Shown here: piece after piece, positions 15,234 to 44,204 of the stretch | How the letters are laid out: each line of letters begins with the position of its first letter | How positions within the stretch are numbered: position 1 is the stretch's first letter | From: Thermoanaerobaculia bacterium | Lineage (GTDB): Bacteria; Acidobacteriota; Thermoanaerobaculia; UBA5066 | DNA length: 64,000 nt | Direction: 5' to 3' | Assembly: GCA_963816185.1 (NCBI GenBank) | Contig: CAWFJJ010000008.1 | Span: forward strand, 224,001-288,000 | Made by a program: the position numbers and the translations under genes | Notes under the pieces: model-generated | The model's input: only the letters and a program-made list of their open reading frames with translations | What the model was told of the DNA's origin: nothing | The model's database searches: none

Positions 15234-17125
15234 GGCGCGATCATCGCCTCCCAGACGGCGCGCGACATCTTCCGCGCGGCGTCGATGACCTTCCGCCGCC
15301 CTTCCTCGTTCGCGCCGAAGTCGTTCGCGAGGAGGACGAGGACGTACTCCCGCCCGTCAGGCAGGCGGACGACCGCCGCGTCGTGCTGCGAGGTGGACAT
15401 ATTTCCCGTCTTGTGGCCCACGATCGCGCCCGACTGCGGATGGAGACCGGCGGGGATCTCCTCGTTGAACGTCTGGCCGGTGAGAATCTCCCATGCCTTC
15501 GCTCTCGAGGCGACCGAGAGCTTCGGCGACCGCACCGCCGCTTCCATTACCGTCGCCATGCCCGCCGCGTCCGTCTCGTTGTTCAGCCCCTCGTCGAACG
15601 CCTTCATGTCCTCGACGCACCGCCGCACCTTCACGGTGGGCGCGCCGAGCGCGTCCGTGAAGGCCTGGACGTTCTCTGGCCCGACGAGCGAGAGGACGAC
15701 GTTCGTCGCGAGATTGGAGGAGCGGACGATCATCTCCGTCACGAGGAATTCGAGCGTCGCCTTCCCGCCGAGCTTCTTCATCGTCGGCGCGTCGCCGTCC
15801 TCGAGGCCGATCGAGAACGGCGAGCCGTCGACGAGACTCTTGAACTCGTTCTTCACCGGCACCTCGTCCGAGAGTCGGAGCGTGCCTGCGTCGACGCGGC
15901 GGAGGACCTCAAGGAGGACGGGGGTCTTCATCGTGGAGGCAGCGTGCATAGGAAGAGAAGGATTCTTCGAAAGGGAAACGCCGCTAGAAAGGTCCTTGAA
16001 GTAGATGCCGAAGCGGGCCCCGCTGGCGTCGGCGATTTTGTCGAGCGTCGTCCTCAGGGTTCGCACCTTCGCCTCCGTGAGCCCCGTCCCCGCTTCCCCT
16101 TTCGAGGAAATCTTCTCTTCTCTCTTCAATCTCCGGGCATATCGAAAGAGAGGCTTCAGGAATGGGCTGTCGAACGGCGTGATCTGCGCGCCGGGCACAC
16201 CGTGACGCGTGGACTGCAGGACCGTGCCGTCGCCGAGCCACATCGCCTCGTGGTCGATCTTGTCCGGCGTGCCGAAGAAGAGGAGGTCGCCGGGCTGGAG
16301 CTTCTCGAACGCGACGGGGACGAGCTGCGGATCCTGGAACGCCTGCTCGTAACTGTTGCGCTTCAGGGTGACGCCGTGCTCCGAGAAGATCCGCCAGATG
16401 AGCCCCGAGCAGTCGAACCCGAGAGGCGAGGTCCCGCCCCAGGTGTACGGTGCGCCGAGGAAGCGCTTGCCGAACGCGATCCAGTCGGAAGGGGATTTGA
16501 GAGGAAGAGGGGAAGAAAGAGAAAGAGGGAGATTTTCTTTGAGGGTGAAGAGGGTCACGTCGCGGCGCGCGACGAAGCCGATGCGCCGATCCGGGAGGCG
16601 CACCTTCACCCAGGAGTAGACGTCCGCCGCATGGCCCGCCGCGGCCGGCTTGCCCTCTTCACCTTCTAAGAAATCTTCAACTGCGAACGTCACCCCCACC
16701 GGAGCGGTGAGGAGGGGACGGGCGGAGGTGAAGGACGGCGTCGCGTAGACATGCGCGAAGTTTGACGTCACGTGCGCGAGCTTCGATCCCGGCGCCGGCT
16801 GCGCCGGCGCCTCACCGCGGCGCAGCGCCCGCTCGGGGATCCACACGTCCTCGCCGGCGGCCGTCCGCACCCTCGCGAAGCCCGCGGCGCTTTCGAGGAC
16901 CGCGACGCGGTCGCCGAGGATCGCCTGGTCGTCGACGCTCGACGTCTCGTCCGGACGGACGAAGAGGTCCTGCACGGCTGTGACGACGACGGCCGTCTGC
17001 GGCGGCGCCGACGACGCACCGGGAGACGCGGAAAGGGAGATTTCTTCGATTGAGAGGAGAAGAACGGCCACAGTGAGTGCGCGAGCGGCGGTGAATCGGC
17101 GGGCGGGATTTCCTTCGAGGCACAT
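15230..17125 (-). CDS. SH3 + NlpC/P60 peptidase fused to class A beta-lactamase-fold serine hydrolase (start uncertain)
   Basis: GAPYTWGG....FDCSG, DH; then AASTMK (SxxK), SSN, HKTG. Confidence 0.85.
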   Translation of the reverse strand: MCLEGNPARRFTAARALTVAVLLLSIEEISLSASPGASSAPPQTAVVVTAVQDLFVRPDETSSVDDQAILGDRVAVLESAAGFARVRTAAGEDVWIPERALRRGEAPAQPAPGSKLAHVTSNFAHVYATPSFTSARPLLTAPVGVTFAVEDFLEGEEGKPAAAGHAADVYSWVKVRLPDRRIGFVARRDVTLFTLKENLPLSLSSPLPLKSPSDWIAFGKRFLGAPYTWGGTSPLGFDCSGLIWRIFSEHGVTLKRNSYEQAFQDPQLVPVAFEKLQPGDLLFFGTPDKIDHEAMWLGDGTVLQSTRHGVPGAQITPFDSPFLKPLFRYARRLKREEKISSKGEAGTGLTEAKVRTLRTTLDKIADASGARFGIYFKDLSSGVSLSKNPSLPMHAASTMKTPVLLEVLRRVDAGTLRLSDEVPVKNEFKSLVDGSPFSIGLEDGDAPTMKKLGGKATLEFLVTEMIVRSSNLATNVVLSLVGPENVQAFTDALGAPTVKVRRCVEDMKAFDEGLNNETDAAGMATVMEAAVRSPKLSVASRAKAWEILTGQTFNEEIPAGLHPQSGAIVGHKTGNMSTSQHDAAVVRLPDGREYVLVLLANDFGANEEGRRKVIDAARKMSRAVWEAMIAP

Positions 17126-17150
17126 TCCCGGATTCCACCATAATCCGGCC

Positions 17151-18302
17151 ATGACACAGTCCACTTCTCCCGCCCTCTCTCGCCGCGGACTCATTCTCTC
17201 CTCGGCGGCCGCCGCCGCGGCCGCCGCCCTGCCGCGTGCCGTCACCGCCGACGGCATGCCGAAGCCGTCCGGTCCTTCCCCTTCGACGCTCTCGTACCGA
17301 CCCCTCGTTCTGAAGCTCGAGCACACGTGGACGATCGCGCGTGGCTCCGCCGACGAGAAGAAGAACGGCCTCCTGACCTTCGCGTCCGAAGGCGTGACCG
17401 GCTACGGCGAGGCGGCCGCGAACAAGCGCTGGAACCAGAGCTGGGAGACGTCCGAGGCCGCCTTCGCGAGGGTCGAGAAGGCCGTCGCCGGCCTCTCGCC
17501 GTGGGACCACCTCACGTGCCTCGAGAAGGCCGAGGCCGCGGCCGGGAACGACCACGAGGTCGTCGCCGCGCTCGACATGGCCCTCTGGGACTGGAAGGGC
17601 AAGCGGCTCGGCCGGCCCGTCCACGAGATCCTCGGCGTGCCCGCGCGCGGCATGCCGGTCACGACGTTCTCGATCGGGATCGACACGGCCGAGGTCATCA
17701 AGCAGAAGGTGAAAGAGGCCGCCGCGTTCCCGAAACTCAAGGTCAAGATCGGCCTCGCGAACGACGAGGAGAACATCGCAGCGATCCGCTCGGTTTCGAA
17801 CCAGCCGATCACGGTGGACGCGAACGAGGGCTGGACGACCGTCGAGGAAGCGAAGAAGAAGATCCTCTGGCTGAACGGCGTCAAGCCGATCTTTCTCGAG
17901 CAGCCGATGCCGGCGGCGATGGACGGCGAGATGGCGAAGCTCAAGGGCCTCGCGACGTTCCCGATCCTCGGAGACGAGGGCGTCCTCACGGCGGCGGACG
18001 TCGCGAAGAAGGCCGGGCTCTATGACGGCGTCGTCGTGAAGCTCGCAAAGGCGGGCGGAATCACGCGTTCGTGGGAGCAGGTCGTCGTCGCGCGCGCCGT
18101 CGGCCTGAAGACGATGTGCGGCTGCATGATCGAGTCCTCGATCGGGATCGCGGCCGGGCTCGCGCTCGGGCCGCTCTTCGACTGGCTGGACCTCGACGGG
18201 TGCCTCCTCCTCGCGAAGGATCCGTTCACGGGGCTGAAGATCGAGAAGGGCGTCTGGGAGATGCCGAAGGGCCCGGGGCTGGGCGTCGCGATGGTGGCCT
18301 AG
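17151..18302 (+). CDS. L-Ala-D/L-Glu dipeptide epimerase (enolase superfamily) with Tat signal
   Basis: SRRGLIL Tat motif; KVKIG, VDANEGW, EQP, GDE, KLAK.GG, GCMIES, DLDG. Confidence 0.9.
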   Translation: MTQSTSPALSRRGLILSSAAAAAAAALPRAVTADGMPKPSGPSPSTLSYRPLVLKLEHTWTIARGSADEKKNGLLTFASEGVTGYGEAAANKRWNQSWETSEAAFARVEKAVAGLSPWDHLTCLEKAEAAAGNDHEVVAALDMALWDWKGKRLGRPVHEILGVPARGMPVTTFSIGIDTAEVIKQKVKEAAAFPKLKVKIGLANDEENIAAIRSVSNQPITVDANEGWTTVEEAKKKILWLNGVKPIFLEQPMPAAMDGEMAKLKGLATFPILGDEGVLTAADVAKKAGLYDGVVVKLAKAGGITRSWEQVVVARAVGLKTMCGCMIESSIGIAAGLALGPLFDWLDLDGCLLLAKDPFTGLKIEKGVWEMPKGPGLGVAMVA

Positions 18303-18311
18303 TCGCCGCGC

Positions 18312-19187
18312 TCAGTTCCTCGGCGCGAGAAAGAGCCTCGGCCGCTCGCCCGAGCGCGTGAGGCCGCGCGCGCGCAGGAGGCGGTGATCCGCGCGCGCGA
18401 TCGTCTTCTCGAGCGTCTCGCCGTCCTCTCGCGCGGCCCACCCGAGCGAGAAGGGTACGAGAAGCTCCCGTTCGGCCAGGAACACGAGGCGCTCGCTCGT
18501 GTTCTCGGTGGCGGCGGCATCCGCCCCGTCGAGAAGGAGCAGGAATTCGTCGCCGCCCATCCGAACGGTCGATTCCTCGGCGCGCGTCGTGCGCATCAGG
18601 AAGCGTGCGACTCGGTTCAGGACGGCGTCGCCTGCCTCGTGCCCGAACTCGTCGTTGTAGTGCTTGAAATGGTCGATGTCGACCATGATGCAGCCCCACG
18701 GGGCGCCCGAGTCGGTGTGGCGCCCGGCGAACTCGGTGAGATAGCGCCGGTTCCAGCAGCCCGTGAGCGGGTCGCGAAGGCTCTGGTCGAGAAGACGTTC
18801 TTCGAGGCGCTTGCGATCCGTGATGTCGATCAGGATGCCCTGGTAGTAGACCTCTCCCGTCTCCTGGTCGACGCAGCGGTAGACCGTGTCGATGACGGTC
18901 CGGATCTCGCCGTCCCTTCGCCGGATCTTGAGCTCGAAATCGCGAACGGCGCCGTCGCGCTCGAGAACGAGGAGCTCGGCCCCGCGGCGGGAAACGTCCA
19001 CGATGAAATCGATGACGGTCATCTCTCGAGCCTCCTCGAGCGACGCGACCCCGAGCATCGCGAGGAAGGCCGGGTTTCCGTCCACGATCCGGCCGGCTTC
19101 GTCCGTGACGTAGATCCCTTCGCGGAGATCGCGCACGAAGCGTCGCAACGCCTCGGCGTCGTCGAGACGGGAGAACCGGCTTGGCAT
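18312..19187 (-). CDS. PAS-GGDEF diguanylate cyclase
   Basis: PAS (GIYVTD..GRI...N.AF), DPLTG..NRR, DIDHFK..ND..GH..GD, RMGGDEF. Confidence 0.93.
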   Translation of the reverse strand: MPSRFSRLDDAEALRRFVRDLREGIYVTDEAGRIVDGNPAFLAMLGVASLEEAREMTVIDFIVDVSRRGAELLVLERDGAVRDFELKIRRRDGEIRTVIDTVYRCVDQETGEVYYQGILIDITDRKRLEERLLDQSLRDPLTGCWNRRYLTEFAGRHTDSGAPWGCIMVDIDHFKHYNDEFGHEAGDAVLNRVARFLMRTTRAEESTVRMGGDEFLLLLDGADAAATENTSERLVFLAERELLVPFSLGWAAREDGETLEKTIARADHRLLRARGLTRSGERPRLFLAPRN

Positions 19188-19225
19188 GGTCAAACGATCC
19201 TATAACGGACGGTCGCCAGGCGTCG

Positions 19226-20833
19226 TCAAGGAGCGAATTGAACCGGCCGTCCGTTCAGTTTTTGGGCGAGAGCGAGACCGCGTCTCACGACGTCGTTCCA
19301 CGGGAAGAGCGCGCCCGGGTCGTCTTTTCGGTCGGGCGCGATGTGCTGGTGCCCGACGATCCAGGGCGCGTCGATCGCGAACATCGCCGTGAGAACTCCC
19401 ACGAGCCGCACGACCGTCTCGATCTGGGCGGGCGTGAAGGGATACCGATTGCCGTCGCCGGTGATCTCGATGCCGACCGAGGTGCGGTTCAGGGCCATGC
19501 GCCCGTGGAGAAGCGAAACGCCCGCGTGCCACGCGCGGTGCTCGAGCGAGACGAACTGGAAAAGGCGGCCGTCGCGGCCGACGAGGAAGTGCGACGAGAC
19601 CTTTCTCTCGGGCTTCTCGAAGAGCGAGATGCACTCCTCGTCGGTGTCCTGCGACGTGTGATGGAGAACGAGTGCCGAGATCGGCTCGATCTTGAACGGC
19701 TCGTAACCCTCCCACCACGAGTTCGGCATCGGGATGAGGCAAGCGTCGGCCACGTCTCCGCCCGCCGCCTGCCAGAGATTCCAGAAGCGTCGGTCCGTCT
19801 CGCGGAAGACGCGGTCGAGGTAAAGGGCGTCGGGGTTCGCCCGGGCTTCGGCGAGCGTCCTCTCCGCGCGCGGCACCGGCGGCAGGAGGACCGGCGGAAG
19901 CGGAGGCTCGACCACGGGTTCGAGGTCGGGGAGCGAAGCGGACCACTCGTTAACGATCGCGGCGGCGACGTCGCCCATCACACGGACGGCACGGGCTTTT
20001 CCGTCCGCCGTGTCGGGAAAGTGGTCGGCGAACGCGACGAGGACGAAGCGGCCCTTCTTCGTCGTGAGGATGCCCGAATCGTTCCGTACGCCTCCGTAGC
20101 TGCCCGTCTTGCCGGCCCAGGACGTCCCGGGCTCGTCGAGGAGCAGCCGAGGCAGGCGGTCGCGATCGTGCTGCGTCGCGAGGAGCTTCCCGATGAGGCG
20201 GTCGCTCGCGGGACCGAGGAGCGTGCGTGTCGCGATCCGCCGATAGAGCTCCGCGGTGTCGCGGGGCGTCATGATGCCGAGGGGTGCCCACTTCGGAGGC
20301 TCCTCGCCCCTGCTCGGGATGCGGCCCACGAGCCGGATCCCGGGCAGGCCGAGCGCCGCCATGCGCGCGTTCACAGCCTCCGCGCCGAAGAGGTCGATGA
20401 AGCGGTCGGCCGCCGTGTTGTCGGAGATCGCGATCATGAGATGGAGCAGGTCGCGATTCGTGGGCGTGAGGCCGGGGTCGAACTCGTCGAGCATCCCCGA
20501 GCCCGCGGCCACGTTCTTCGCCGTGAGCTTCCAACGGTCCGTCAGGTCGAAACGGCCCTCCCCTTCGAGAGCGGCCGCCTCGACCAGGAGCGCGAGCTTG
20601 ATGACGCTCGCCGCCTCGAACTCCTCCGCGGCGTTCAGCTCGAGGCGCCGCCCGCTCTCGACGTGAAGCGCCACGATTCCCATTCGCGCCCCGCTCTTCG
20701 CCGCGAGCTTCGCGACGCGGCGGGCGAGCCCGCGGTCGTCCGGCGCCACGTGCAGCGAAGCAGGGATGGAGGTGCAGGACGCGAGAAACAGGAGGAGAAC
20801 GAAAGGGAGAATTCCTGCTATCGGTGGCCGCAT
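19226..20833 (-). CDS. Lipoprotein: beta-lactamase-fold serine hydrolase fused to N-acetylmuramoyl-L-alanine amidase (Amidase_2)
   Basis: LASC lipobox; AASVIK, SDN, KTG; LVLHHT, VSSHFLV, RAWHAG, GIE, GHQHIAP.RK.DPG. Confidence 0.9.
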   Translation of the reverse strand: MRPPIAGILPFVLLLFLASCTSIPASLHVAPDDRGLARRVAKLAAKSGARMGIVALHVESGRRLELNAAEEFEAASVIKLALLVEAAALEGEGRFDLTDRWKLTAKNVAAGSGMLDEFDPGLTPTNRDLLHLMIAISDNTAADRFIDLFGAEAVNARMAALGLPGIRLVGRIPSRGEEPPKWAPLGIMTPRDTAELYRRIATRTLLGPASDRLIGKLLATQHDRDRLPRLLLDEPGTSWAGKTGSYGGVRNDSGILTTKKGRFVLVAFADHFPDTADGKARAVRVMGDVAAAIVNEWSASLPDLEPVVEPPLPPVLLPPVPRAERTLAEARANPDALYLDRVFRETDRRFWNLWQAAGGDVADACLIPMPNSWWEGYEPFKIEPISALVLHHTSQDTDEECISLFEKPERKVSSHFLVGRDGRLFQFVSLEHRAWHAGVSLLHGRMALNRTSVGIEITGDGNRYPFTPAQIETVVRLVGVLTAMFAIDAPWIVGHQHIAPDRKDDPGALFPWNDVVRRGLALAQKLNGRPVQFAP

Positions 20834-20861
20834 GCGCGGCCACCGGCAAAGAGAACGTGTT

Positions 20862-20936
20862 GCCGGGCGGAGGCTGTCAAGGGTCCTCGACCGCTGCGCG
20901 GCGCGCGGAGCGCGCCCTTGACAGCCTTCGCCCGGC
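20862..20936. repeat. REP-like intergenic palindrome (22-bp arms)
   Basis: GCCGGGCGGAGGCTGTCAAGGG ... CCCTTGACAGCCTTCGCCCGGC, one mismatch. Confidence 0.8.
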
Positions 20937-21018
20937 CCAGATTCGTCCCTGCGGCGGCGGCGAATGCCGCCGCCGATATCAGAAGAAATTCTCATCTTCT
21001 GTCGTTCTAACATGCGCC

Positions 21019-22188
21019 ATCACGAGCGAGCAAAATCTCCCCTCTTCCTCCGCGTCCCCCGCCTCTGCGCCCGCCTCCGGCGGGCGCCTCGCGGCCCTCG
21101 ACATGTTTCGCGGCCTCACGGTCGTCGGGATGGTTTTCGTCAACAACCCGGGCGACTGGGGACACCTCTACTGGCCGTTCGACCACGCGGAGTGGCACGG
21201 CTGGACGCCGACCGACCTCATCTTCCCGTGGTTCCTGTTCATCGTGGGCGTCGCGGGCGTCTTTTCGCTCGAGAAGCGCATGGCGCAGGGCGCGGACCGT
21301 CTGGACCTCGCGCGCCACGCCTTCCGGCGAGGAATGACGATCGTCGTCGTGGGCTGGCTGATGGCCTTCTATCCGTTCGTTCCGTTCTTCGACCGCCTCG
21401 CACACCTTCGGATCCCCGGCGTTCTCGCACGCATCGGCGTCGCGTACGTTTTCGGCACGTGGATTCTCCTCGCGGTCTGGAAGCGGCGCGCCGTCGGCGT
21501 CGCGGCCGCCGTCGCGTTCCTGCTCGCCCTCCACACGTGGCTCCTCCTCGGGACGGGGTACGACCTGACGCCCGCCGGCAACGTCCAACGCGCGGTCGAT
21601 CTCGCCGTCCTGAAGGGCCATCTCTGGAAGAACGCCCAGGGCTGGGATCCCGAGGGGATCGTCTCGACGCTCACGGCGATCGCGACGATGCTGACGGGGA
21701 CGCTGACGGGTTTCCTCCTGAAGGGCCGGACCGGCGTGAAGGCGAAGGTGACGCGCCTCCTCGCCTGGGGCGCGATCGCGACCGCGGCGGGCCTCCTCTG
21801 GGGACGGGCGCTCCCGATCAACAAGAACCTCTGGACGGCGTCCTATGTCGTCTTCACGTCGGGTGCTGCCCTCCTCGTGATCGGCGTTTGCGTCCTCGTG
21901 ATCGACGTCCTCGGCTGGAAGAAACCGTTCGCGCCGTTTTTCACCTTCGGGACGAACCCGCTCCTCGTCTTCGTCCTCTCGGGCCTCCTCGCCAAGACGA
22001 TGGGGCTCGTCAAGCTGGGGGACGCGGCGGGCAAGACGGTCACGCTTCACGCGTGGGTCTACCGCTCCGGCTTCTCGTGGATCGCGGACCCGACCGTGCG
22101 CTCGCACGCGTTCGCTCTCGTCACGATCCTCTTCTGGTGGGCGATCCTGCGCGTCTTCGAGAAGAAGGGCTGGTACTGGAAGATCTGA
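21019..22188 (+). CDS. HGSNAT/NagX (DUF5009-like) membrane acyltransferase family protein; start uncertain
   Basis: RLAALDMFRG, VNNPG.W, HAEWHG.TPTDLIFP.FLFIVG, DPEG..ST, PINKNLWT.SYV. Confidence 0.88.
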   Translation: MTSEQNLPSSSASPASAPASGGRLAALDMFRGLTVVGMVFVNNPGDWGHLYWPFDHAEWHGWTPTDLIFPWFLFIVGVAGVFSLEKRMAQGADRLDLARHAFRRGMTIVVVGWLMAFYPFVPFFDRLAHLRIPGVLARIGVAYVFGTWILLAVWKRRAVGVAAAVAFLLALHTWLLLGTGYDLTPAGNVQRAVDLAVLKGHLWKNAQGWDPEGIVSTLTAIATMLTGTLTGFLLKGRTGVKAKVTRLLAWGAIATAAGLLWGRALPINKNLWTASYVVFTSGAALLVIGVCVLVIDVLGWKKPFAPFFTFGTNPLLVFVLSGLLAKTMGLVKLGDAAGKTVTLHAWVYRSGFSWIADPTVRSHAFALVTILFWWAILRVFEKKGWYWKI

Positions 22189-22201
22189 CGGACATCTCGC
22201 G

Positions 22202-23119
22202 TCAGGACGAGAGGATCCGGCGCGGGACCTCCGTCGCCGACCGGACCGCGACCTCTTCAGGAAAATTCGCCGCCACGAGGCGCGCGACGCAATCGTCGAG
22301 GAGGGCCGTCGAGCCGGCGAGGGCGCCCGAGGCGTTGCGGGCGGCGCCGCTCTTTACCGTGAGAGTCTCGCCCCAGACGGAATAGTCGCCGTCCGCGAGG
22401 CCTGCGGCCGGCATCGCGTCGCTGATCAGGGCGACGCGCCCGTCGCCCTTGGCGCGAAAGACGAGGCGGAGCATCTCGTTCGAAAGGTGGTGCGCGTCCG
22501 CGATGATGTCCACCGTCACGCCGTCCGTGACGAGGCCCCAGCCGATCGGGCCCGCCTCGCGGTGGTGGAGCGGCTTCATCGCGTTGGCGAAGTGCGTCAT
22601 GTGCCGTGCGCCAGCCGCGAGCGCCGCGTCGAGCGTCGCGACGTCGGCCTCCGTGTGGCCGATCGAGACGACGAACCCGCGCCTCACGAACTCCTTCACG
22701 ACGGCAATCCCGCCGGGGATCTCGGGGGCGAGCGTCGTCATTCCGTGGCCGGGCGGATCGCCGGCCGCCTCGAAAAACGCATCGAGCTTTCTCGGATCAC
22801 CGCCGTCGAGAAAGCACGAGGGGTGAAGGGCGCCGCAGCGCGCGGCCGAGACGAACGGTCCTTCGAAATGAATCCCGAGGGGCATCGCCCCGCGCCCATC
22901 GTCCGCGCGGCGCGAGCGCATCCACGCCGAGAGGCGCGCGACCGTCGCGGCTGTGTCGCCGAGAGGCTGCGGGACGAGCGTGGGAAGAAAGCCCGAGACG
23001 CCGCGGCCGGACAGCCCCCGAGCGAGGCGGTCGAGATCGCTCGCGGAGGCCGTCAGCACGTCGATACCGAATGCGCCGTGAATGTGAAGGTCGAGAAGAC
23101 CTTTTGCTCCCTCGCTCAT
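22202..23119 (-). CDS. nagA: N-acetylglucosamine-6-phosphate deacetylase (compact)
   Basis: DLHIHG, HFEGPF, TLAPE, GHT, THFANAM, ADAHH, ISDAM. Confidence 0.88.
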   Translation of the reverse strand: MSEGAKGLLDLHIHGAFGIDVLTASASDLDRLARGLSGRGVSGFLPTLVPQPLGDTAATVARLSAWMRSRRADDGRGAMPLGIHFEGPFVSAARCGALHPSCFLDGGDPRKLDAFFEAAGDPPGHGMTTLAPEIPGGIAVVKEFVRRGFVVSIGHTEADVATLDAALAAGARHMTHFANAMKPLHHREAGPIGWGLVTDGVTVDIIADAHHLSNEMLRLVFRAKGDGRVALISDAMPAAGLADGDYSVWGETLTVKSGAARNASGALAGSTALLDDCVARLVAANFPEEVAVRSATEVPRRILSS

Positions 23120-23982
23120 CCGCCGCCTCGCTCTGGCGGCTCGGTCAGCGCGGCGGCCACGTTCGAATGTTTCTTAGAAAGGTGAAGAGCGGCCGCGGAG
23201 GCATCGACTTTCCATTTCGCCGAGACGAGTGCGGTAGGCAAGTGCCAATTAACCCTTCTGAGAAATTCTTCTGCGTTCTCTTCGGACGTTTCCGCAATGT
23301 CCCGGACGATGCGGATCGCGCGTTTGCGGAGTTTTTCGTTCGTGGGTTTCATCGCGACCATCTCGTCGCGGTAGACGAAGCCTCTTTTCGCCATGACGGC
23401 CGTCGAGAGCATGTTGAGGGCGATCTTCTGCGCGGTTCCGGCCTTCAGCCGGCTGGACTCGGCGAGGACCTCGGGACCGGTATCGAGGACGATCGCGATG
23501 TCCGCGAGCCTCTCGAGAGGAGAATGGAAACGACATACGATCGCCACCGTGAGCGCGCCCGCGCGCTTCGCCTCTTCCAGGGCGCCCGACACATAGGGTG
23601 TCGTGCCGCTCGCGGAGATGCCCACGACGGCATCCTTTGCGCCCAAGCCCGCCGAGACGAGGTCGCGTGCGCCCGCGCCCGCACCGTCCTCCGCGCCCTC
23701 CTTCGCCTCTGACATTGCGTCGCGTCCGCCCGCGACGAGCGCGACGACGAGCGAGGGGTCGGTCCCGAACGTAGGCGGGATCTCTGCGGCGTCCAGCGCT
23801 CCGAGCCGGCCGCTCGTCCCGGCGCCCGTATAAAACCACCGGCCGCCCGCCTCGAGCCGCGAGGCGATTGCGTCGGCCGCGCGCGCAATCGCGGGAAGAG
23901 CCGCGCTCACGGCGTCCTGGACCGCGCGGTCGGCCGCGTGGAGCCGCCTGAGGAGGTCGAGCGTCGCGCTCATTTCGTGCAT
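23116..23982 (-). CDS. murQ: N-acetylmuramic acid 6-phosphate etherase
   Basis: GAGTSGRLG.LDA.E.PPTF, EGAED, GISASG.TPYV, GPEV...SSRLKAGTAQK..LNMLST. Confidence 0.92.
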   Translation of the reverse strand: MHEMSATLDLLRRLHAADRAVQDAVSAALPAIARAADAIASRLEAGGRWFYTGAGTSGRLGALDAAEIPPTFGTDPSLVVALVAGGRDAMSEAKEGAEDGAGAGARDLVSAGLGAKDAVVGISASGTTPYVSGALEEAKRAGALTVAIVCRFHSPLERLADIAIVLDTGPEVLAESSRLKAGTAQKIALNMLSTAVMAKRGFVYRDEMVAMKPTNEKLRKRAIRIVRDIAETSEENAEEFLRRVNWHLPTALVSAKWKVDASAAALHLSKKHSNVAAALTEPPERGGG

Positions 23983-24905
23983 TTCTCCTCCGCGAGCGCG
24001 AGGCGGATGGCGCCGATCTCCGGCGGAAAGGCCGACGGCCCGACCGTCGCTCCGGGTGCGACCGCCGTGATCGCCGCGCGAAGCGGGTCGAGGAGGGGTG
24101 AGCCGGCGGAGAGGACACCGCCGATCGTCGCGACCGGGAACGACTCCTTCTCGAGGCCGAGCTTGCGGACGACCGTGACGACGTCGAGAGCCAGCTCGCG
24201 CGCGGCTTCCTCGAGAATACGCCGCGCCTCGGCGTCGCCGTCCTTCGCCGCGGCGAGAACGACCGGGTAGTAAGCGGCGACGTCGGCCGCGCCGCTCTCG
24301 GAGTGGTACACGTGCTCGAGGAGGTCCGTGATCGAGCGGACGTCCTCCGTCGCGAAGAGACGCTTCTTGATCGCCGTCTTCGGGCCGCGGCCGTCGATCT
24401 CGCGCACGACCGCGATCAGCCCCCGCCGCGCGATCGCGTAGCCCGAGCCTTCGTCGCCGATCACGGGCCCGTAGCCGCCCGCCCGCGCGGTCGCGCCGTT
24501 TCGCCCCTGGCCGAAGGCGATCGCGCCCGTACCGGCGATGAGGATCACGGCCGGGGCGTCGAGGGCCTCTCGGGATGCCCCGGCAAGCGCGATGCGGGCG
24601 TCGCTCGTCAGGAGGACGCGGCCCGCGCCGAAGACGCCTTCGAGCGCGCCGAGAAGAGGGCGGCGATCGTGAATGGAATCGATTCCGGCGAGGCCGATCG
24701 CGACGCGACGCGGGTCAGCGTCGCCGGCGGCGGCGAGAGCGTCCGCTGCCGCCTCGTGAACCGTCTCGACCACGCTCGGCAGGGGTCTCGTCGCGGCGTT
24801 CGCCGGGCCCGAGGCTCCCCGGCCGAGCGGCACGAGATCGGCTCCCGCCACGACGGCGCGCGTACGGGTCCCGCCGCCGTCGATTCCGATGTAGAACGGC
24901 CCCAT
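23970..24905 (-). CDS. BadF/BadG-family GlcNAc/MurNAc kinase (MurK-like)
   Basis: GIDGGGTRT, SDA, IAGTG, GGYG..IGDEGSGY; operonic with murQ and nagA. Confidence 0.88.
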   Translation of the reverse strand: MGPFYIGIDGGGTRTRAVVAGADLVPLGRGASGPANAATRPLPSVVETVHEAAADALAAAGDADPRRVAIGLAGIDSIHDRRPLLGALEGVFGAGRVLLTSDARIALAGASREALDAPAVILIAGTGAIAFGQGRNGATARAGGYGPVIGDEGSGYAIARRGLIAVVREIDGRGPKTAIKKRLFATEDVRSITDLLEHVYHSESGAADVAAYYPVVLAAAKDGDAEARRILEEAARELALDVVTVVRKLGLEKESFPVATIGGVLSAGSPLLDPLRAAITAVAPGATVGPSAFPPEIGAIRLALAEEKCTK

Positions 24906-24981
24906 GGAGTCAGCTTAACAAGGGCCGCCAGATTCACCCGCATCAGTTCCGGTGAGCGCTCCATGGGGCTAGATTCTGCTC

Positions 24982-26328: not shown

Positions 26329-28192
26329 GTGCGCCGGCCGCTCTTCCTGCTCCTTCTCGCCACCTTCGCGCTGAAGGCGGCAGTCCTCGCGCGCTTCAAC
26401 GCCCATCCCCTTCTTCAGCCCGCGGGCGACATCGACGGCGGCGTCTACGCGCGTCTCGCGGCGGACGTGGCACGCGGAGATCTCCTGCTGCGCGGCGCCG
26501 GCCCCGTGCCGTTCTTCGTCTCGCCTCTCTACATCTACTTCCTCGCGGCGATCCAGGCTCTCTCATCCGGTTCACTTCTCGCGGTGAAGGTCGTGCAGAT
26601 CGCGCTCGGAACGGCCGCGGTCGCGCTCGTTTTCTTCACGGCAAGACGCCTTTTCGGCAGCCGCGCGGCGCTCGCCGCCGGCATCCTCTACGCACTCATT
26701 GGCGTCGTGACGTTTCACGAGGTCCTGATCCTCCAGGCGGCGATCGATCCCTTCTTGACGGCGCTCGCTCTTTTCCTGCTGGCTGATGCGCTCACGCGGG
26801 GCAGCTTGGGACGCTGGCTCGCTGCGGGCGCGGCGTTCGGCCTCCTCGCGTTGAATCGTCCGAACGCGCTTCTGTGCATCGTTGCAATCGTCGTCGTTCT
26901 GCTCGCATTCGCCGCGACGCGTCTCGTCGCGCGTCGCCACAACGGCCAGCCCTTCTTACCCTTCGAAGAAAATCCTCTTCGAACCCTGCAAGTTGTCGGG
27001 GCATTCCTCGTGGGGACGGGAGCAATGATTGCATTGCCCTTCGCACGCAACCTGATCGTCTCCGGCGAGCCCGTCCTGATCTCTTCACACGGCGGGCTGA
27101 ACTTCCTGATCGGGAACGGACCGGAAGCAAACGGCGTCTACCGAGTGATCCCGGGGATCACGCCCGACATCGGGGGGCAGGCGGCGGACGCGAAGCGCAT
27201 CGCGGAGGCAGCCGAAGGCCGGCCGCTTTCTACGCGGGAGGTCTCGGCGCACTTTGCGAAAGTCGCGTGGACGTGGATCAAGGAAGATCCGGGCGCGGCC
27301 GCTGGACTCTTCCTCAGGAAGATCTGGTACGTCCTCTCGCGCGACGAGGCGCCGCTCAATTTCAGCTTTCCGTGGTACCGCGAGCGAAGCCTCGCGCTGA
27401 AGGTGCTGTTCGTGAGCTCCGGCCTCCTCGTGCCGCTCGCGGGCGCGGGTTTCGTCCTGGCCTCTCTTTGCGTCGGCAGGGGCGGAGCGCCGCGCGCTCT
27501 TCGTCTGGGCGATCTTCGTCCCGGCGTACGTATTCGCCGTCGCGGCATTCTTCGTCGCGACGCGGTACCGTCTCCCGCTTCTCGTCGCTCTCGCCTCGCT
27601 CGGGGGCGCCGCCCTCGCGCGGCTCCCGGAGGCGTGGCGGACGAAGGGCGCTCGGCTCTGGTCAGCGGCGGCGGCGGCCGCCCTCCTTTCGGTGGTCTCC
27701 CTGTGGCCGACGGGCCTCTGGGACGGCGCCGGGGACGAGGAGATGCACCTCGTCCTCTGGGAGATCGAGCAGGGCGAGGCGGGGGCGATGCAGCACGCGG
27801 AGGCGGCAGCCCGAGAGCATCCCGATCCGGCTCTCGTCTGGCTACGTGTCGGGCGGTCGTTCGTGACGGCGGGGAAGAGCGACGAGGCGATCACGGCGCT
27901 CACTCGGTCCCACGAGATCGACGCCAACCGTCCCGGGACGGCTTCCTTTCTGTCGGCCCTGCTCGAAAAGAGGGGGCTCGCGCGCGTCCTCTCTGGAGAC
28001 CCGACGGGAGCGCGCCCCGATCTCGAGGAGGCCGTCCGGCTGGACGGCACGAACGCGTCGGCGTGCCTGAACCTTGCCGTGGCCCTCGCCGAGACGGGAG
28101 ACAGCTCGCGCGCCCGGGAGCTCATCCAACGGGCTCTCGTCTTGAGACCCGGCTACGACAAGGCCGAACAGCTCCTGAAGGCTCTCCGCTAG
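26329..28192 (+). CDS. ArnT/GT39-like membrane glycosyltransferase with C-terminal TPRs (+1 frameshift in G-run near 27480)
   Basis: PFFVSPLY.YFLA, RPN, GGLNFLIGN; after removing one G, FFVATRYRLP and TPR repeats to stop 28192. Confidence 0.82.
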
Positions 28193-28198
28193 GCGCTC

Positions 28199-28285
28199 AG
28201 GCCGGCCGGCGCCCCCTCTCCTTCGCGCGTGAACTCGCTTCGCTCAAACAGCACGCGCGTGCGTCGAGAGGGTGCCGTCTCGCCC
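28199..28285. repeat. REP-like hairpin containing AACTCGCTTCGCTCAAACA
   Basis: Imperfect stem (CGCGCGTG...CACGCGCG; CCCTCTC...GAGAGGG) between convergent genes. Confidence 0.5.
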
Positions 28286-28295
28286 CTCGCGCCAC

Positions 28296-28327
28296 AAGAA
28301 AAAGTGGCCCGGCGTTTCCGCCGGGCC
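28296..28327 (-). terminator. Rho-independent terminator of the TonB receptor gene
   Basis: Minus strand GGCCCGGCG-GAAA-CGCCGGGCC followed by ACTTTTTCTT. Confidence 0.85.
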
Positions 28328-28356
28328 CATCAAGAGAAGTTAGAGAAGGGGGAGTC

Positions 28357-33346: not shown

Positions 33347-33410
33347 CTACGAATGGTACAGGACCCGACACAGGCCGTCCTCGGGCGGAACGCCATAGAA
33401 TCGATCGGCC

Positions 33411-34559: not shown

Positions 34560-37258
<2,699 letters not shown>

Positions 37259-37287
37259 GAGCGCGATCCTGGTCCAGAATGGCGCGC

Positions 37288-37491
37288 ATGTCGAAGCCAA
37301 GATCCGAGGACGAGCAGAAGGCCGTCGAGACGATCCTGTGGGCGCTCGGCCATCGCCTCGCGCGCCTGAGGGACGAGTACACGATGAAGGTTCAGCGCGG
37401 CGAGGAGCCCGAGGGCGTGACGAAGGGCTTCGAGATGGCGCTCCGCGAGATCAACGACATGCTTCCGCGGCGCAAGCGTTTCAGGGGCTGA
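37288..37491 (+). CDS. Small hypothetical helical protein
   Basis: 67 aa ORF with GC-typical codons filling the gap between trmJ and the NnrS-like gene. Confidence 0.65.
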   Translation: MSKPRSEDEQKAVETILWALGHRLARLRDEYTMKVQRGEEPEGVTKGFEMALREINDMLPRRKRFRG

Positions 37492-37497
37492 AACTGT

Positions 37498-38844
37498 TCA
37501 GGCGGCATGCGCGTGCACCGGGAGAGCCACGGGACTCGTGGCGTTCGCCCTCCGTTTAAGAGTCGCGACGAGGACGTGCGCCCACAGGAGCAGGCCTACC
37601 GTCGCGAAAATGCCGGTCGTCCCGACGAGCCTGTAAAGAGGCAGGCCGCCCCAGCCGAGGGCGACGGGGATCTGCAGCGCGCGGACCAAGGCCGCGGCGG
37701 CCACGAAGGCGAGGGCGAGACGTGCTTCGCGCGGGCGCACGAGCGCGCGACCCGTGAACGCCGGGACCACGCGCAGGCTCATGCCGACGATCAGGAGCGT
37801 GAGAAACCCGATCGTGTAGACGTGTCGCGCGCCGTCCCACACGAACTTGTGAACAGAGGCCCCCGAGAGCTCGCCGATCGAAGCCGCGATGGAGATCGCC
37901 GCGAAGAGCCCGAGAAAGGCGAACGGCGCGCGCAGCGAGAGCGCTCCGGGAGCCTTGGCGAACGGCGCGAGGATTCGGCCGGCGGCGAGGAACACGAGAA
38001 CCGCCGCAGAGACGAGCAGCGTTCCGCCGAGCGCGAAGCCGCGTGAGACGGGCGGCGTCAGGCCGGGAATCCAAGCGGCCGCGAGGAGGAGGACGCCTGC
38101 CCCCTGCAGCGCCGCGACGGGCCGCGCGCTCTTCGCAGTGGGTCGGTGCAGCCCCAGGAACGCGGGGACCATCCGCGAGGCGAAACCGAGTACGTACGAG
38201 AGAATGAAGCCGTAGAGCGCGATCGCGTAGAAGGGCTCGACGAGGCCGCCCGGGATCTCGGACTCCGCATGGCCCGCGAGGAAGAGCGACTGAGCGCCGG
38301 AGAGCACGACGGCGAGCGCGGCCCAGAGCGATCCGAAGAGGACGTGAAGGGAAAGAGGGTCGCCGAGGGAGCGGCGCGCGGCGAGAACGGGCAGAGCCCA
38401 GGCGAGGAACGCGAACACACCGGCGATCTCGAGCGTCCCCGAGAGAAGAGACAGGAATCGGCCCGCCGGCCAGGGCGCGAGCGGCTGTCCGAACGCGCGC
38501 AGCAGGGCGCCGCCGCCCACGCCGACGAGCACGGTGAAGAGCACCCGGTTGGACGGCGTTTTCGCTCCGAGGATGCGCGGAAGCGCGTGAAGCGCGACGC
38601 CGAAGATGAAGAGGCCGGCGAACCCGAGGAGCTGGACGTGCGCGTGAAGCTGAAGATGGGACACGAGAACCGTGCCTCCGGCGAAAGCCATCTGCCAGAT
38701 CGCCCAGCCGCCAGTCGAAACGCCGAGCGTGAGGGCGAGGGCGAGCGCGGTGAGGACGAAGGAGGGCAGGAGGTTGCGGGGGGGCGCGCTCGGGGCGTTC
38801 GACCCGCAAGCGCTGCAGCAAGGAGCGGTCTGAAGGGGGGCCAT
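37498..38844 (-). CDS. NnrS-like polytopic membrane protein
   Basis: H.QLHAHVQL.GF..LFI.G, GF..RM.PAF, RH..TIGF....I.GM..R..P; about 12 hydrophobic segments; GGAG SD. Confidence 0.7.
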   Translation of the reverse strand: MAPLQTAPCCSACGSNAPSAPPRNLLPSFVLTALALALTLGVSTGGWAIWQMAFAGGTVLVSHLQLHAHVQLLGFAGLFIFGVALHALPRILGAKTPSNRVLFTVLVGVGGGALLRAFGQPLAPWPAGRFLSLLSGTLEIAGVFAFLAWALPVLAARRSLGDPLSLHVLFGSLWAALAVVLSGAQSLFLAGHAESEIPGGLVEPFYAIALYGFILSYVLGFASRMVPAFLGLHRPTAKSARPVAALQGAGVLLLAAAWIPGLTPPVSRGFALGGTLLVSAAVLVFLAAGRILAPFAKAPGALSLRAPFAFLGLFAAISIAASIGELSGASVHKFVWDGARHVYTIGFLTLLIVGMSLRVVPAFTGRALVRPREARLALAFVAAAALVRALQIPVALGWGGLPLYRLVGTTGIFATVGLLLWAHVLVATLKRRANATSPVALPVHAHAA

Positions 38845-38888
38845 GTCTTTCTCCACGGCCAAATTAGGCGTCAAGGCGCGGGTCCGGT

Positions 38889-38902
38889 ATGACGGGCGTC
38901 AT
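38889..38902. promoter_or_regulatory. Crp/Fnr-type palindrome ATGAC-N4-GTCAT (box 1)
   Basis: ATGACGGGCGTCAT; minus-strand -10 TAATTT at 38866-38861. Confidence 0.7.
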
Positions 38903-38976
38903 TTCCGTGGGCTGAAGTCCCTGCATCATGGTTGCGCCGGCCATGGAGCACCATGCTTCAGCGCGGGAGGAGAACC

Positions 38977-40230: not shown

Positions 40231-40261
40231 AGGGCACCGTGGTCGGAAACACGCGCCCCCT

Positions 40262-40275
40262 ATGACCTTCGTCAT
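40262..40275. promoter_or_regulatory. Crp/Fnr-type palindrome ATGAC-N4-GTCAT (box 2)
   Basis: ATGACCTTCGTCAT centred 41.5 bp upstream of ATG 40310. Confidence 0.75.
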
Positions 40276-40309
40276 GACGGGCCGCCGCGTGGGAGAACAA
40301 CCTTCGACG

Positions 40310-42340
40310 ATGGCGATCTCCGTCCGGTTCCCCGACCTCGAACACTGGAAAGCGCAGGTCAAGTGTCAGGCCGGCTGTCCCGTCGCGACGGACGCCGGGC
40401 GATATGTCCAGCTCATCGCCGAAGGGCGGGACGAGGATGCCTTTCTCGTCGCGCGCGCGCCGAATCCGTTCGCGTCGGTGTGCGGGCGCGTTTGCGCCGC
40501 CCCGTGCGAAGACGCGTGCCGCCGCGGCTCGATCGACGCGCCCATCTCGATCCGGGCGCTGAAGCGCTTCGTCACGGAGCAGTACGGCGTCGAATCGCGT
40601 CGGCCGGACACGCAGGAAAGGCTGTTCAGAGAGCCGATCCTGGAGGGAAACCGCTATTCGGGTCACCTGCCGATTCACCCTTCGGGCGCAAAGAAGATTT
40701 TCTTAGAAGGGAATACAGACGAGGGCGCCGCGGGTGCACCGGCCGATCTCGCGAGCGCCGCCGAGCGCATTTCGCCCTCTTCACCTTCTAAGAAATCTCC
40801 CGGTTCTTCCGGGCGACCGAAGGTCGCCGTCGTTGGAGCCGGTCCGGCCGGCCTTTCCGCCGCGCACGACCTCGCGCTCCTCGGCTACAGCGTGACCGTC
40901 TTCGAGGCGGCGGGGGAGCCCGGCGGAATGATGCGCTTCGGCATCCCGGAGTACCGCCTCCCGCGGACGCTCATCAAGGCCGAGATCGACCGGATCCTCT
41001 CGTTCGGCGTCGCGCTCCGGCTTGGAACGCCTCTGACTCCGGACTTCGGCCTGACGGAGCTCAAGGCCGAAGGCTACGAGGCCGTCTTCCTTTCCGTCGG
41101 CGTGTCGAAGGGGCGCGACCTGCAGGTCCCGGGCGTCGAGCTGGACGGCGTCGTGAAAGCGGTCGACTACCTCCTGAACGTCAACCACGGCTTCCGCATG
41201 GACCTCGGGCGGCGCGTCGTCGTCATCGGCGGCGGGTTCGTCGCGTTCGACGCGGCGCGCACGGCGCTCCGCCTGGGGCGCGAAGCCGACGTCGACGCGC
41301 TCGAAGAGAAAGCCGGCGAAGCCGACGCGCGCCTCAAGGAAGCGCTCGACTCGGCGCGGGCCGCGCTGCGCGGCGGCGCGGCCGAGGTAACACTCGTCTC
41401 TCTCGAGAACTTCGAGGAGATGCCGGTTCTCCGGACGACGCAGGGCCACGAGGAGTTCGAGGAGGCGAAAAAGGAAGGCGTTCGCTTCCATCCGCGCCGC
41501 GGCCCGCAGCGCTTCCTCGGCAGCGGGCGCCTGACCGCCGTCGAGCTGAAGAGGGTGACGTCCGTCTTCGACGAGCGCGGGCGTTTCGCCCCCGCGTACG
41601 ACGAGTCGGACGTCGTGACGCTCGAAGCGGACGCCTGCGTCCTCGCGATCGGCCAGAAGGCGGACCTTTCGTTCCTGAAGCAGGGAGACGGCATCGCGCT
41701 CACGCCGGCCGGCACGATCGCGGTCGACAAGACGACGCTCGCGACGTCGGCTCCGGGGATCTTCGCGGGCGGCGACGTCGCCTTCGGCCCGCGCAACCTC
41801 ATCGAGGCGGTCGCGAACGGCAAGCGCGCCGCGCGCTCGATCCACGAGCACCTCGCGAAGGAGAAGGCCTCGATCCGCGCCACGCTCGAGATCGAGAAGA
41901 TCCCGACGTCGTCGTACCGGATGATCGCGGGCTTCGAGATCCTCGACCGCGAGGCGCCGCCGACGCTGGACCTCGGGCGGCGCACGGGCATCGCCGAAGT
42001 CGAGACGGGCTACGCGGCACTCGAGGCGCGCGCGCAGGCCGCGCGCTGCCTCATCTGCCACGTGCAGACGATCTACGACCCGGAGGCCTGCGTCCTTTGC
42101 AACCGCTGCGTCGACGTCTGCCCGGAGTACTGCCTCGCGCTCGTGCCGCTCGAGGAGCTGGACCTCCCGGAGGACGAGCGCGCGGCCCTCGCGGCGCGCG
42201 CCGGAGGAAACGGTTTGCCGCTGTCCGCGATGGTCAAGGACGACGACCGCTGCATCCGCTGCGGCCTGTGCGCGATCAGGTGCCCGACGGACGCGATGAC
42301 GATGGAGAAGTTCTCCATCACGGAGGGATTCGATGAGTGA
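40310..42340 (+). CDS. GltD/NfnB-like NAD(P)H-dependent flavoprotein with N-terminal Fe-S and C-terminal 2x[4Fe-4S] domain
   Basis: CQAGCP, CGRVCAAPCE..C, GAGPAG, GIPEYRLP, GGGFVA.D, FAGGD, RCL.C, two CxxCxxCxxxCP. Confidence 0.9.
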   Translation: MAISVRFPDLEHWKAQVKCQAGCPVATDAGRYVQLIAEGRDEDAFLVARAPNPFASVCGRVCAAPCEDACRRGSIDAPISIRALKRFVTEQYGVESRRPDTQERLFREPILEGNRYSGHLPIHPSGAKKIFLEGNTDEGAAGAPADLASAAERISPSSPSKKSPGSSGRPKVAVVGAGPAGLSAAHDLALLGYSVTVFEAAGEPGGMMRFGIPEYRLPRTLIKAEIDRILSFGVALRLGTPLTPDFGLTELKAEGYEAVFLSVGVSKGRDLQVPGVELDGVVKAVDYLLNVNHGFRMDLGRRVVVIGGGFVAFDAARTALRLGREADVDALEEKAGEADARLKEALDSARAALRGGAAEVTLVSLENFEEMPVLRTTQGHEEFEEAKKEGVRFHPRRGPQRFLGSGRLTAVELKRVTSVFDERGRFAPAYDESDVVTLEADACVLAIGQKADLSFLKQGDGIALTPAGTIAVDKTTLATSAPGIFAGGDVAFGPRNLIEAVANGKRAARSIHEHLAKEKASIRATLEIEKIPTSSYRMIAGFEILDREAPPTLDLGRRTGIAEVETGYAALEARAQAARCLICHVQTIYDPEACVLCNRCVDVCPEYCLALVPLEELDLPEDERAALAARAGGNGLPLSAMVKDDDRCIRCGLCAIRCPTDAMTMEKFSITEGFDE

Positions 42341-44203: not shown

Positions 44204-44204
44204 C

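Follow-up and report, generated by a model that had tools for sequence, protein, structure and literature searches.

The stretch of DNA analyzed here, referred to as the window, comprises 64,000 nucleotides of a Thermoanaerobaculia bacterium (Acidobacteriota; contig CAWFJJ010000008.1, positions 224,001 to 288,000), has a G+C content of 60-71%, and carries within several unrelated protein-coding genes an AT-rich motif of about 25 bases, (G)AAGATTT(T)CTTNGAAGGTGAAGAGGG, here called an arm. Copies of the motif were aligned into a profile, the window was searched with this profile using nhmmer, and matches with E <= 0.15 were taken as arms. In total, 13 arms were identified, all confined to 15.9-40.8 kb of the window, with the remaining matches all scoring below 6 bits. 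Ten of the 13 arms form five convergent pairs, in which a forward arm is followed by a reverse arm after a gap of 60-111 bp, and the open reading frames (ORFs) that host the arms are genuine genes according to their matches in Pfam and NCBIfam. Two of the pairs are located in a gene on the minus strand (15230..17326; Pfam, NCBIfam and PDB) that encodes a fusion of SH3b-NlpC/P60 and class A beta-lactamase-like domains and probably starts nearer 17119. The other three were found in the gene for N-acetylmuramic acid 6-phosphate etherase, MurQ (23116..23982, minus strand; Pfam, NCBIfam and homolog alignments), in a gene for a TrmJ/SpoU-family RNA methyltransferase (36578..37300, minus strand; Pfam, NCBIfam and structure alignment) and in a gene for an NfnB/GltD-like Fe-S flavoprotein oxidoreductase (40262..42340, plus strand; Pfam and NCBIfam). 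A PMT_2 glycosyltransferase ORF (26329-31179, plus strand; Pfam and NCBIfam) is also an arm host.

In the fusion gene, the forward arm of the first pair (15954..15983, plus strand, 14.0 bits) is read on the minus strand as GVSLSKNPSLP in the beta-lactamase-like domain, and its reverse partner with a purine-rich flank (16089..16117, minus strand, 14.0 bits) falls in the linker that joins the NlpC/P60 domain to the beta-lactamase-like one (KREEKISSKGEAG) and is kept in the related loci L053 and L028. The second pair consists of a forward arm identified with the profile (16526..16555, plus strand; minus-strand reading LFTLKENL), whose CT-rich flank accounts for about 8 additional residues in the SH3-NlpC/P60 linker (an 8-residue insertion relative to 3h41), and of a reverse arm (16652..16682, minus strand) that encodes EDFLEGEEG and has a core unchanged in L053. 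A solo arm at the end of the signal peptide encoded by the same gene (17032..17055, plus strand, 12.5 bits; LSIEEIS) is kept in L053 and L028, and no inverted partner was detected for it. A weak arm-like copy over the probable ATG start (17103..17126, plus strand, 8.8 bits, E 0.15) is not conserved in L053. The arms of the third pair, recovered both with the profile and in MurQ alignments, fall in the C-terminal helices of MurQ (23162..23191, plus strand; AALHLSKKHSN on the minus strand) and inside the same protein (23244..23274, minus strand; AEEFLRR). The PMT_2 ORF contains a solo arm of 19.5 bits (26950..26980, minus strand; PFLPFEENPL) for which no partner was detected. In the TrmJ-like gene, the forward arm (36961..36988, plus strand; TTFEEISR on the minus strand) was supported by the profile and an alignment, and the reverse arm (37081..37109, minus strand), supported by the profile and the solved TrmJ, lies over a conserved GATDILDA segment. 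The fifth pair combines a profile-identified forward arm in a linker of the NfnB/GltD-like oxidoreductase (40689..40718, plus strand; KKIFLEGN) with a reverse arm (40774..40804, minus strand; SPSSPSKKSP) in a lineage-specific linker insertion of about 60 residues.

The reverse arms of the second and fifth pairs share an exact 25-mer (16652-16676 and 40774-40798), for which 0.00 matches were expected in 100 shuffles, and which is translated as EDFLEGEEG in the minus-strand gene and as SPSSPSKKS in the plus-strand gene. A preliminary description of this DNA had reported the 25-mer, five inverted pairs with gaps of about 60-110 bp, singletons at about 17035 and at 26956-26977, and hosts that are unrelated protein-coding genes; all of this is borne out here, with coordinates that agree within a few bases. 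Some arm-like matches coincide with twin-arginine or ordinary signal peptides (for example MESRRGFLRKG), as in locus L004 (17343-17404) and at 17100-17126 in the window, and coding sequence of the RRxFLK type can therefore double as an arm.

To place the motif in a wider context, a genome collection was scanned with an exact 22/23-mer; the copies found in this way, which represent one arm subtype, are referred to as ascertained copies. The word was found in at least 120 places, and 120 of 120 among the matches listed were in metagenome-assembled genomes (MAGs) of the Acidobacteriota/Thermoanaerobaculia. The matches listed came from 24 MAG assemblies produced in different studies and with different assemblers, and the motif is therefore not an assembly artefact. 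A profile search of 1.47 Mb of related MAG DNA recovered 406 arms (389 unique), many of the pairs being orthologs or paralogs of each other. For the enrichment test, the ascertained copies were masked together with 300 bp on each side, which left 1.44 Mb. In this masked DNA, TTTCTTAGAA occurred 77 times versus 0.06 expected, and all of the top 40 over-represented 10-mers (40/40) were words of the motif. The arm density was 0.84 per 10 kb away from the ascertained copies and about 2 per 10 kb in the window. Chance or artefact as the origin of the motif was ruled out by the shuffles, the 10-mer enrichment in masked DNA and the 24 assemblies. Literature searches with the string TTCTTAGAAGG, judged by titles and abstracts, and with the combinations of Thermoanaerobaculia and inverted repeat or of Acidobacteria and repetitive extragenic palindromic, retrieved among the matches listed no record that describes the element under these terms.

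The arm has a near-invariant, asymmetric core of 12 nt, TTTCTTNGAAGG, which is palindromic solely as TTC-N3-GAA, and the arm as a whole is not a palindromic hairpin. On its inner side the core is followed by a weaker (T)GAAGAGGGG tail that is GTGAAGAGGG-like, and on its outer side by about 25 nt with 70-90% purine, often in the form of (GAAGAG)n or other short tandem repeats. Conservation fades gradually into the purine-rich flanks, which are inverted-symmetric. In L059 (4491-4620), L041 (10011-10200) and other loci, the outer flanks run into (TCCGAA)n, (GAAGAG)n or (GAA)n, which suggests that slippage-prone low-complexity DNA adjoins the motif.

The arms have a strict polarity. Neighboring arms within 400 bp were arranged as +- in 115 cases, as compared to 10 for --, 6 for -+ and 5 for ++. 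Of 201 arms, 140 had an inverted core 35-200 nt away on their inner side but only 4 had one on their outer side, and forward cores, which served as an internal control, were equally distributed over the two sides (15 and 14). Many apparently solo arms have a decayed partner. The preliminary description had proposed that over-representation, pair orientation and presence in sister genomes be used to check the signal, and all three results support it. For 15 of the 32 pairs between genes, the centre-to-centre spacing fell within 74-81 bp; in genes it ranged from 63 to 150 bp, with no 10.5-bp periodicity (vector length 0.065); a 3-nt period alone was found, and it comes from coding constraints. 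A rule that pairs A-type with B-type arms was considered and rejected as an ascertainment effect, since the subtypes in unascertained pairs (AA 3, AB 17, BB 26) fit random combination, as expected if the two arms are independent.

Alignments of the host proteins showed few or no indels at the arms of MurQ, the beta-lactamase-like domain and TrmJ. MurQ could be aligned to the solved structure 4s12 with no gap over residues 6-278, and the region of the pair was gapless relative to 11 homologs of 44-51% identity, with the conserved alanine and leucine columns of the family retained in the inner segment. Likewise, the arm located just before the SxxK motif of the beta-lactamase-like domain was gapless relative to the class A-like structure 2j7v, and GAEDFLRK in TrmJ was placed over the conserved GATDILDA of the solved TrmJ, with a difference of 1 residue at one arm. 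Extra residues at arms were confined to linkers, namely the 8 residues at the NlpC/P60 flank and the approximately 60 residues of the NfnB-like protein. The segments enclosed by the arms are locus-specific host coding sequences, shared between loci only where the flanks are homologous too; in loci with unrelated flanks, 41 matches between inner segments were obtained, all of chance type (12-16 nt) except two of 31-33 nt. These alignments indicate that the arms arose within the genes through point changes and were not brought in as inserted mobile DNA. The preliminary description had left open whether the motif peptides are insertions or substitutions, and the alignments point to substitution; its analogy with Rickettsia palindromic elements (RPEs) did not hold at these loci, and a family of RPEs or of miniature inverted-repeat transposable elements (MITEs) with a shared interior was ruled out by the unrelated inner segments. 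One exception was observed in the orthologous loci L055 (9990-10180) and L011 (11590-11700), which differ by about 150 bp, corresponding to a whole unit. L055 contains two tandem forward arms, an inner segment and a reverse arm, of which one forward arm is left in L011, and block gain or loss therefore also happens.

The whole-unit difference, together with the NfnB-like pair in its long linker insertion, is what would be expected of a mobile inverted doublet, of the type known from doublets of repetitive extragenic palindromic sequences (REPs), termed REPINs, or from repeats bounded by terminal inverted repeats (TIRs). Such a doublet would have been moved by a Y1 transposase (RAYT- or TIRYT-like) or another transposase, with copies that have since decayed or been domesticated. 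The geometry is similar to that of REPINs, which are reported to consist mostly of inverted doublets, at distances of 71 or 110 bp and with little conservation of the spacer (Bertels and Rainey, 2011; PMC3116915), and TIR-flanked Y1 transposases and TIR repeat families have been reported in the Acidobacteria (Di Nocera et al., 2013; PMC3733652). We consider this origin very unlikely, given that inner segments are unshared between loci with unrelated flanks and consist of host coding sequence in gapless alignments, that no sharp terminus was observed and the flanks are inverted-symmetric rather than direct duplications, no dedicated search for target-site duplications having been run, that compensatory changes are absent, and that none of 12 ORFs bracketed by distant + ... 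- arms encodes a transposase (0/12). In addition, arms exceed their surroundings in conservation at orthologous sites, unlike decaying insertions. In 16 orthologous comparisons, identity was 81.4% in the arms (599/736), as compared to 71.8% in the outside sequence, 66.1% in the inner segments and 64.8% in the purine flanks.

The constraint acts on nucleotides and not on protein, be it through selection or drive, as the preliminary description had anticipated. Codons located wholly within arms have a G+C content at third positions (GC3) of 0.34, versus 0.90 in the rest of the called genes and 0.89 expected from the amino acids of the arms, and 30 of the 94 TTA codons of all called genes are found in arms, which make up about 0.25% of the codons. 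Arms are read in at least five combinations of frame and orientation, giving peptides such as EDFLEGEEG, SSPSKKSSS, YSFEEIP and LHLLRK, and the pairs have a fixed polarity. Of 107 intergenic arms, 87 have A at the central position. In genes, in-frame stops are avoided at this position: for the two frames in which A would give TAG or TAA, C or T prevails (C11 T7 A9 and C21 T4 A3), and the few cases of A are those where the ORF ends. In paralogs of a kinase, a residue varies (L/F) while TTCTTNGAA is kept.

These kinases belong to a Pkinase-PD40 paralog family in which both arms occupy fixed positions with an exact spacing class of 91/93 bp. Tandem arrays of Ser/Thr kinase-PD40 paralogs were found in L078 (3800-18000; six in 20 kb) and L023 (6800-18000), in which KVLPEDFLEGEE precedes the alpha-C helix, and YSFEEIP and then a poly-Ser tract come behind the helix.

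Both arm peptides of MurQ, AE[DEG]FLR... and ...LSKK..., were retained in all 16 of 16 orthologs (74-84% identity), and the pair is therefore old. When the NlpC/P60-beta-lactamase gene was aligned for three species (about 78% identity), arms at orthologous positions were conserved. The linker arm has nevertheless changed its partner, in that the window and L053 use different downstream sites, which are two or three point substitutions apart. The partner in the window is CTTTCGAAGAATCC, of which a decayed copy is present in L053, and the partner in L053 is CTCGAAGAAATCTCC, where the window has CTCGACAAAATCGCC. Partner arms are thus exchanged through point substitutions.

Inverted orientation and a single repeat sequence at all loci would also be expected if the arms were targets of one site-specific invertase, forming hundreds of small invertible switches of promoters or ORFs, or intragenic invertons that generate premature stops. 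Inversion in silico created a stop in most non-kinase pairs (20 of 28) and in all kinase pairs (14 of 14), and validated intragenic invertons are more often of the premature-stop type (8 of the 10 listed; Chanin et al. preprint, PMC10028968). By the same numbers, a version of this hypothesis in which inversion preserves the ORF is not supported; the ORF stayed open in 8 of the 28 non-kinase pairs and in none of the 14 with kinases, as compared to 65% for random segments. The inner segment was inverted in none of 146 ortholog or paralog alignments (about 14 of them distinct non-kinase orthologous pairs, including intergenic ones in which orientation should drift), although consensus assemblies may miss rare flipped subpopulations. 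Since segments of 60-150 bp are also very short for synapsis, and since essential parts of the proteins, among them the alpha-C region of the kinases and the stretch beside the beta-lactamase-like SxxK motif, would be destroyed if they were flipped, an invertase is scarcely credible as the explanation.

We also compared the placement of the arms to that of genes and transcripts. The gene calls in the related loci are approximate, resting on a crude codon-usage caller, according to which 156 of 268 arms are genic and 112 are intergenic, with uncalled DNA amounting to just 19%. Intergenic pairs were located between convergent genes in 6 cases, between divergent genes in 6 and between tandem genes in 16. 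Of 78 pairs, 21 contained a gene stop, against an expectation of about 10%. Among the 33 stops in the neighborhood of pairs, 30 were at -44 to +8 of the first arm, ten of them being the arm's own TAG or TGA. A role as ribosome-binding sites was rejected, as just 6 of 210 arms were so placed. In L042 and L045 (10011-10150), a forward arm provides the Shine-Dalgarno-like AGAAGGTGA at 8 nt upstream of the start codon, which is ATG in L042 and GTG in L045; the gene downstream was read as NagZ-like from its translation alone, and its FLLFKRNL segment has rare codons and forms a decayed reverse arm.

The accumulation of stops close to the first arm is in line with the main rival to a site on DNA, namely a sequence-specific RNA hairpin. 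In such an element, the purine-rich 5' arm and the pyrimidine-rich 3' arm of the transcript would form an imperfect stem of 25-40 bp that could serve as a REP-like stabilizer of mRNA 3' ends, a terminator, a processing site or a modulator of translation within genes. REPs are reported to be mostly downstream of coding regions, sometimes in genes, with ends that can supply TAG stops (PMC3733652). The predicted arm duplexes have a mean energy of -42.6 kcal/mol, pairs 1, 2 and 5 of the window fold arm to arm (z -1.9 to -4.3), and the purine and pyrimidine flanks would be able to pair loosely without covariation. However, the duplexes are not specific to the partner, with -42.6 kcal/mol for a pair's own arms versus -43.8 for non-partners (p = 0.25, 78 pairs), and within-pair identity of the arms was 0.481 versus 0.489 for shuffled partners (z -1.1, 80 pairs). 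Neither arm-to-arm covariation nor partner-specific duplex stability was thus found in these pairs, and, for the mRNA stem suggested in the preliminary description, maintenance by compensatory change was not supported. Stems were about equally stable on the sense and antisense strands (26 vs 19), which leaves no G·U asymmetry in favor of the sense strand. Pairs 3 and 4 of the window show no arm-to-arm folding (z about +1), the inner segments are without excess structure (mean z -0.2 vs shuffles), 6 of 28 intergenic pairs are located between divergent genes, and ribosome-binding positions are as rare as noted above. No match to Rfam 15 was obtained in the window at the gathering score, or in four loci at E <= 0.1, and a stem alone leaves the near-invariant 12-nt sequence unexplained. 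On this evidence, we regard an RNA element as unlikely.

The region 15230-24905 is a peptidoglycan-recycling cluster with unusual fusions (Pfam, NCBIfam). It contains, in addition to the fusion gene with two pairs, a second fusion of a beta-lactamase-like domain with an AmpD amidase (19226-20833), an L-Ala-D/L-Glu epimerase-like gene and genes for a GGDEF protein, NagX, NagA, MurQ and NagK. The PMT_2 ORF (26329-31179, plus strand) is open over 1607 codons and antisense to a strongly coding gene for a CarboxypepD_reg/OMP beta-barrel protein of 940 amino acids (28357-31179, minus strand), and a separate plus-strand frame is coding at 27692-28192. Such a layout points to a frameshift or an assembly indel within PMT_2, or else to a spurious extension of a GC-rich ORF. 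The G+C content is lower (0.60-0.63) in the segment 2357-6047, in which hypothetical genes accompany a type IV toxin-antitoxin pair, AbiEii/AbiEi. This segment is free of arms and is possibly a recently acquired island. Denitrification-related genes are located at 37498-38862 and 42333-61582, and comprise NnrS, Rieske/cytochrome b, a Sec-type (clade II) NosZ, NosD, an ABC ATPase and a NorB-like cytochrome c-fused oxidase. The profile search identified no arms anywhere in 42-64 kb of the window.

That the low-GC AbiE island and the nos cluster are free of arms, and that the motif is clade-specific and common to the 24 assemblies among the matches listed, would agree with molecular drive without benefit to the host. 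In this scenario, an uptake signal or biased transmission or repair would let motif-improving mutations accumulate wherever they are tolerated. The mode of evolution is the same as that of the uptake signal sequences (USS) and DNA uptake sequences (DUS) in coding regions, for which substitution, reading-frame bias and a preference for poorly conserved residues have been reported (Findlay and Redfield, 2009; PMC2817400). Uptake signals are, however, single sites in either orientation, whereas the arms have an inner partner in 140 of 201 cases versus an outer one in 4, and a lost partner is replaced nearby. Their density of about 0.8-2 arms per 10 kb is also roughly ten times below that of USS/DUS, with reported counts of 1,471, 765 and 1,892 per genome (PMC2817400). 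We thus find drive improbable, and the preliminary suggestion of an uptake-like sequence holds for substitution with adaptation to the reading frame but has no counterpart for the strict pair rule.

The explanation that we favor, with a probability of roughly 0.4, is that the arms constitute a selectively maintained, clade-specific paired cis-element, in which each arm is an oriented recognition site for a putative sequence-specific factor acting on DNA. Sites for an oriented DNA-binding factor are preferred because the arms are sequence-constrained, asymmetric and mutually independent, and because their placement ignores transcription units. The element would arise, persist and be lost in place by point substitution in the Thermoanaerobaculia. 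Its working unit would be two facing arms, preferably about 75-80 bp apart from centre to centre, with 60-150 bp tolerated. In genes, it is fitted to the reading frame by means of rare AT-ending codons and the variable central base, at sites where the protein is permissive, such as linkers, termini and variable helices. The data show the motif itself, its polarity and spacing, its evolution in place under a constraint at the nucleotide level, its conservation at orthologous sites and the independence of the two arms. We infer that the reader is most likely a protein, that it acts on DNA rather than RNA, and that the cell gains from its action. The element may be a nucleoid-structuring or topoisomerase-type site, by analogy with what has been proposed for REPs and bacterial interspersed mosaic elements (BIMEs), or it may belong to the site set of a domesticated transposase or recombinase. 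Of the ideas put forward in the preliminary description, a paired protein site and a stem are the two that survive.

Several observations weigh against the paired DNA site. A rigid looping protein is expected to impose 10.5-bp phasing, which is absent. No binding protein or gene co-occurring with the motif was identified, a systematic co-occurrence search not having been made. The strand-asymmetric purine flanks and the predicted stems of about -42 kcal/mol would fit a single-stranded hairpin equally well, and the enrichment of stops at the pairs resembles, by analogy, that of REPs acting on mRNA 3' ends. The whole-unit difference of about 150 bp between one orthologous pair of loci, the pair inside the NfnB-like linker insertion and the dependence of the genic and intergenic counts on the crude codon-usage caller also weigh against it.

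A broader form of the paired DNA site, which we regard as possible but doubtful, is a class-wide "second code" in which each genome contains several hundred pairs of convergent sites, dedicated to one sequence-specific factor and spread without transposition. The pairs would then have been selected into intergenic DNA and, by synonymous or conservative recoding, into the sequences of housekeeping genes and catalytic domains, as a new type of chromosome-wide punctuation that marks short loops, wrapped segments or single-strand hairpins, and that combines REPIN-like geometry with USS-like evolution in place. Arms are present even inside conserved enzyme domains, where they require codons that are the rarest at a genomic GC3 of 0.90, and this cost implies a strong and lasting pressure from a putative factor. 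The lineage is poorly studied and mostly uncultured, from soil and sediment, and the reader of the motif, once found, could reveal a new system for nucleoid organization, topology, recombination or RNA processing. The element is a practical marker of the clade, and calls for caution when genes are called or codon usage is analyzed in these genomes.

Among the closest known systems are the REP, BIME and REPIN elements of E. coli and Pseudomonas, in which a short conserved repeat is likewise present in hundreds of copies, most of them arranged in inverted doublets whose members are separated by tens of bp of weakly conserved sequence. This repeat is often located right behind stops, can supply the stop and is occasionally genic. 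The doublet arrangement is also found here, as seen in the inner inverted partners (140/201) and the intergenic spacing of 74-81 bp (15/32 pairs). The arms differ from these elements in that 156 of 268 are in called genes, where they overlay coding sequence by substitution, and in that all five pairs of the window are in Pfam-confirmed genes and thus not extragenic. Furthermore, the spacer is unrelated host sequence and compensatory changes are absent, the arm is not a palindromic hairpin and lacks a GTAG or CGTC tag, the 12 bracketed ORFs included no linked Y1 transposase, and arms are conserved at orthologous sites across species. With the USS of the Pasteurellaceae and the DUS of Neisseria, the element shares a clade-specific, frame-fitted motif built by substitution in coding regions at poorly conserved residues, where local codon and peptide usage is distorted. 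It differs in its strict convergent pairing at 60-150 bp, with +- 115 versus -+ 6 and inner 140 versus outer 4 in place of single copies in free orientation, as well as in its longer motif, purine-rich flanks and approximately tenfold lower density.

The RPEs, which Ogata et al. in 2000 reportedly described as whole inserted segments of 100-150 bp that are similar over their full length and add residues, resemble the element, as do in-frame MITEs, in being repeats within unrelated protein-coding genes that are translated in several frames. Here, what the copies have in common is limited to the two arms of about 25 nt, and the host proteins are for the most part unchanged in length; an insertion of about 30-50 extra residues is seen in neither MurQ, the beta-lactamase-like domain nor TrmJ, the exceptions being the 8-residue NlpC/P60 flank and the NfnB-like linker of about 60 residues. 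HIP1 of the cyanobacteria is an 8-bp perfect palindrome that occurs singly and is reportedly spread by substitution. It is, like the arm, a hyper-abundant lineage-specific word in genes and spacers, whereas the arm is an asymmetric site of 12-25 nt with an obligatory inverted partner. Invertons likewise have inverted repeats around short segments inside genes, but here one repeat sequence serves all loci, the segments are very short and 0 of 146 comparisons were flipped. No known RNA family was recognized, in that neither the window nor the four loci matched Rfam 15. The usual accounts of dispersed bacterial repeats invoke either mobile DNA, as for REPINs, MITEs and RPEs, or single words under drive or selection, as for USS/DUS, Chi and HIP1. 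The element described here fits neither account, since it has the paired, oriented architecture of transposon ends and REP doublets, and yet is made, kept and replaced by point substitution.

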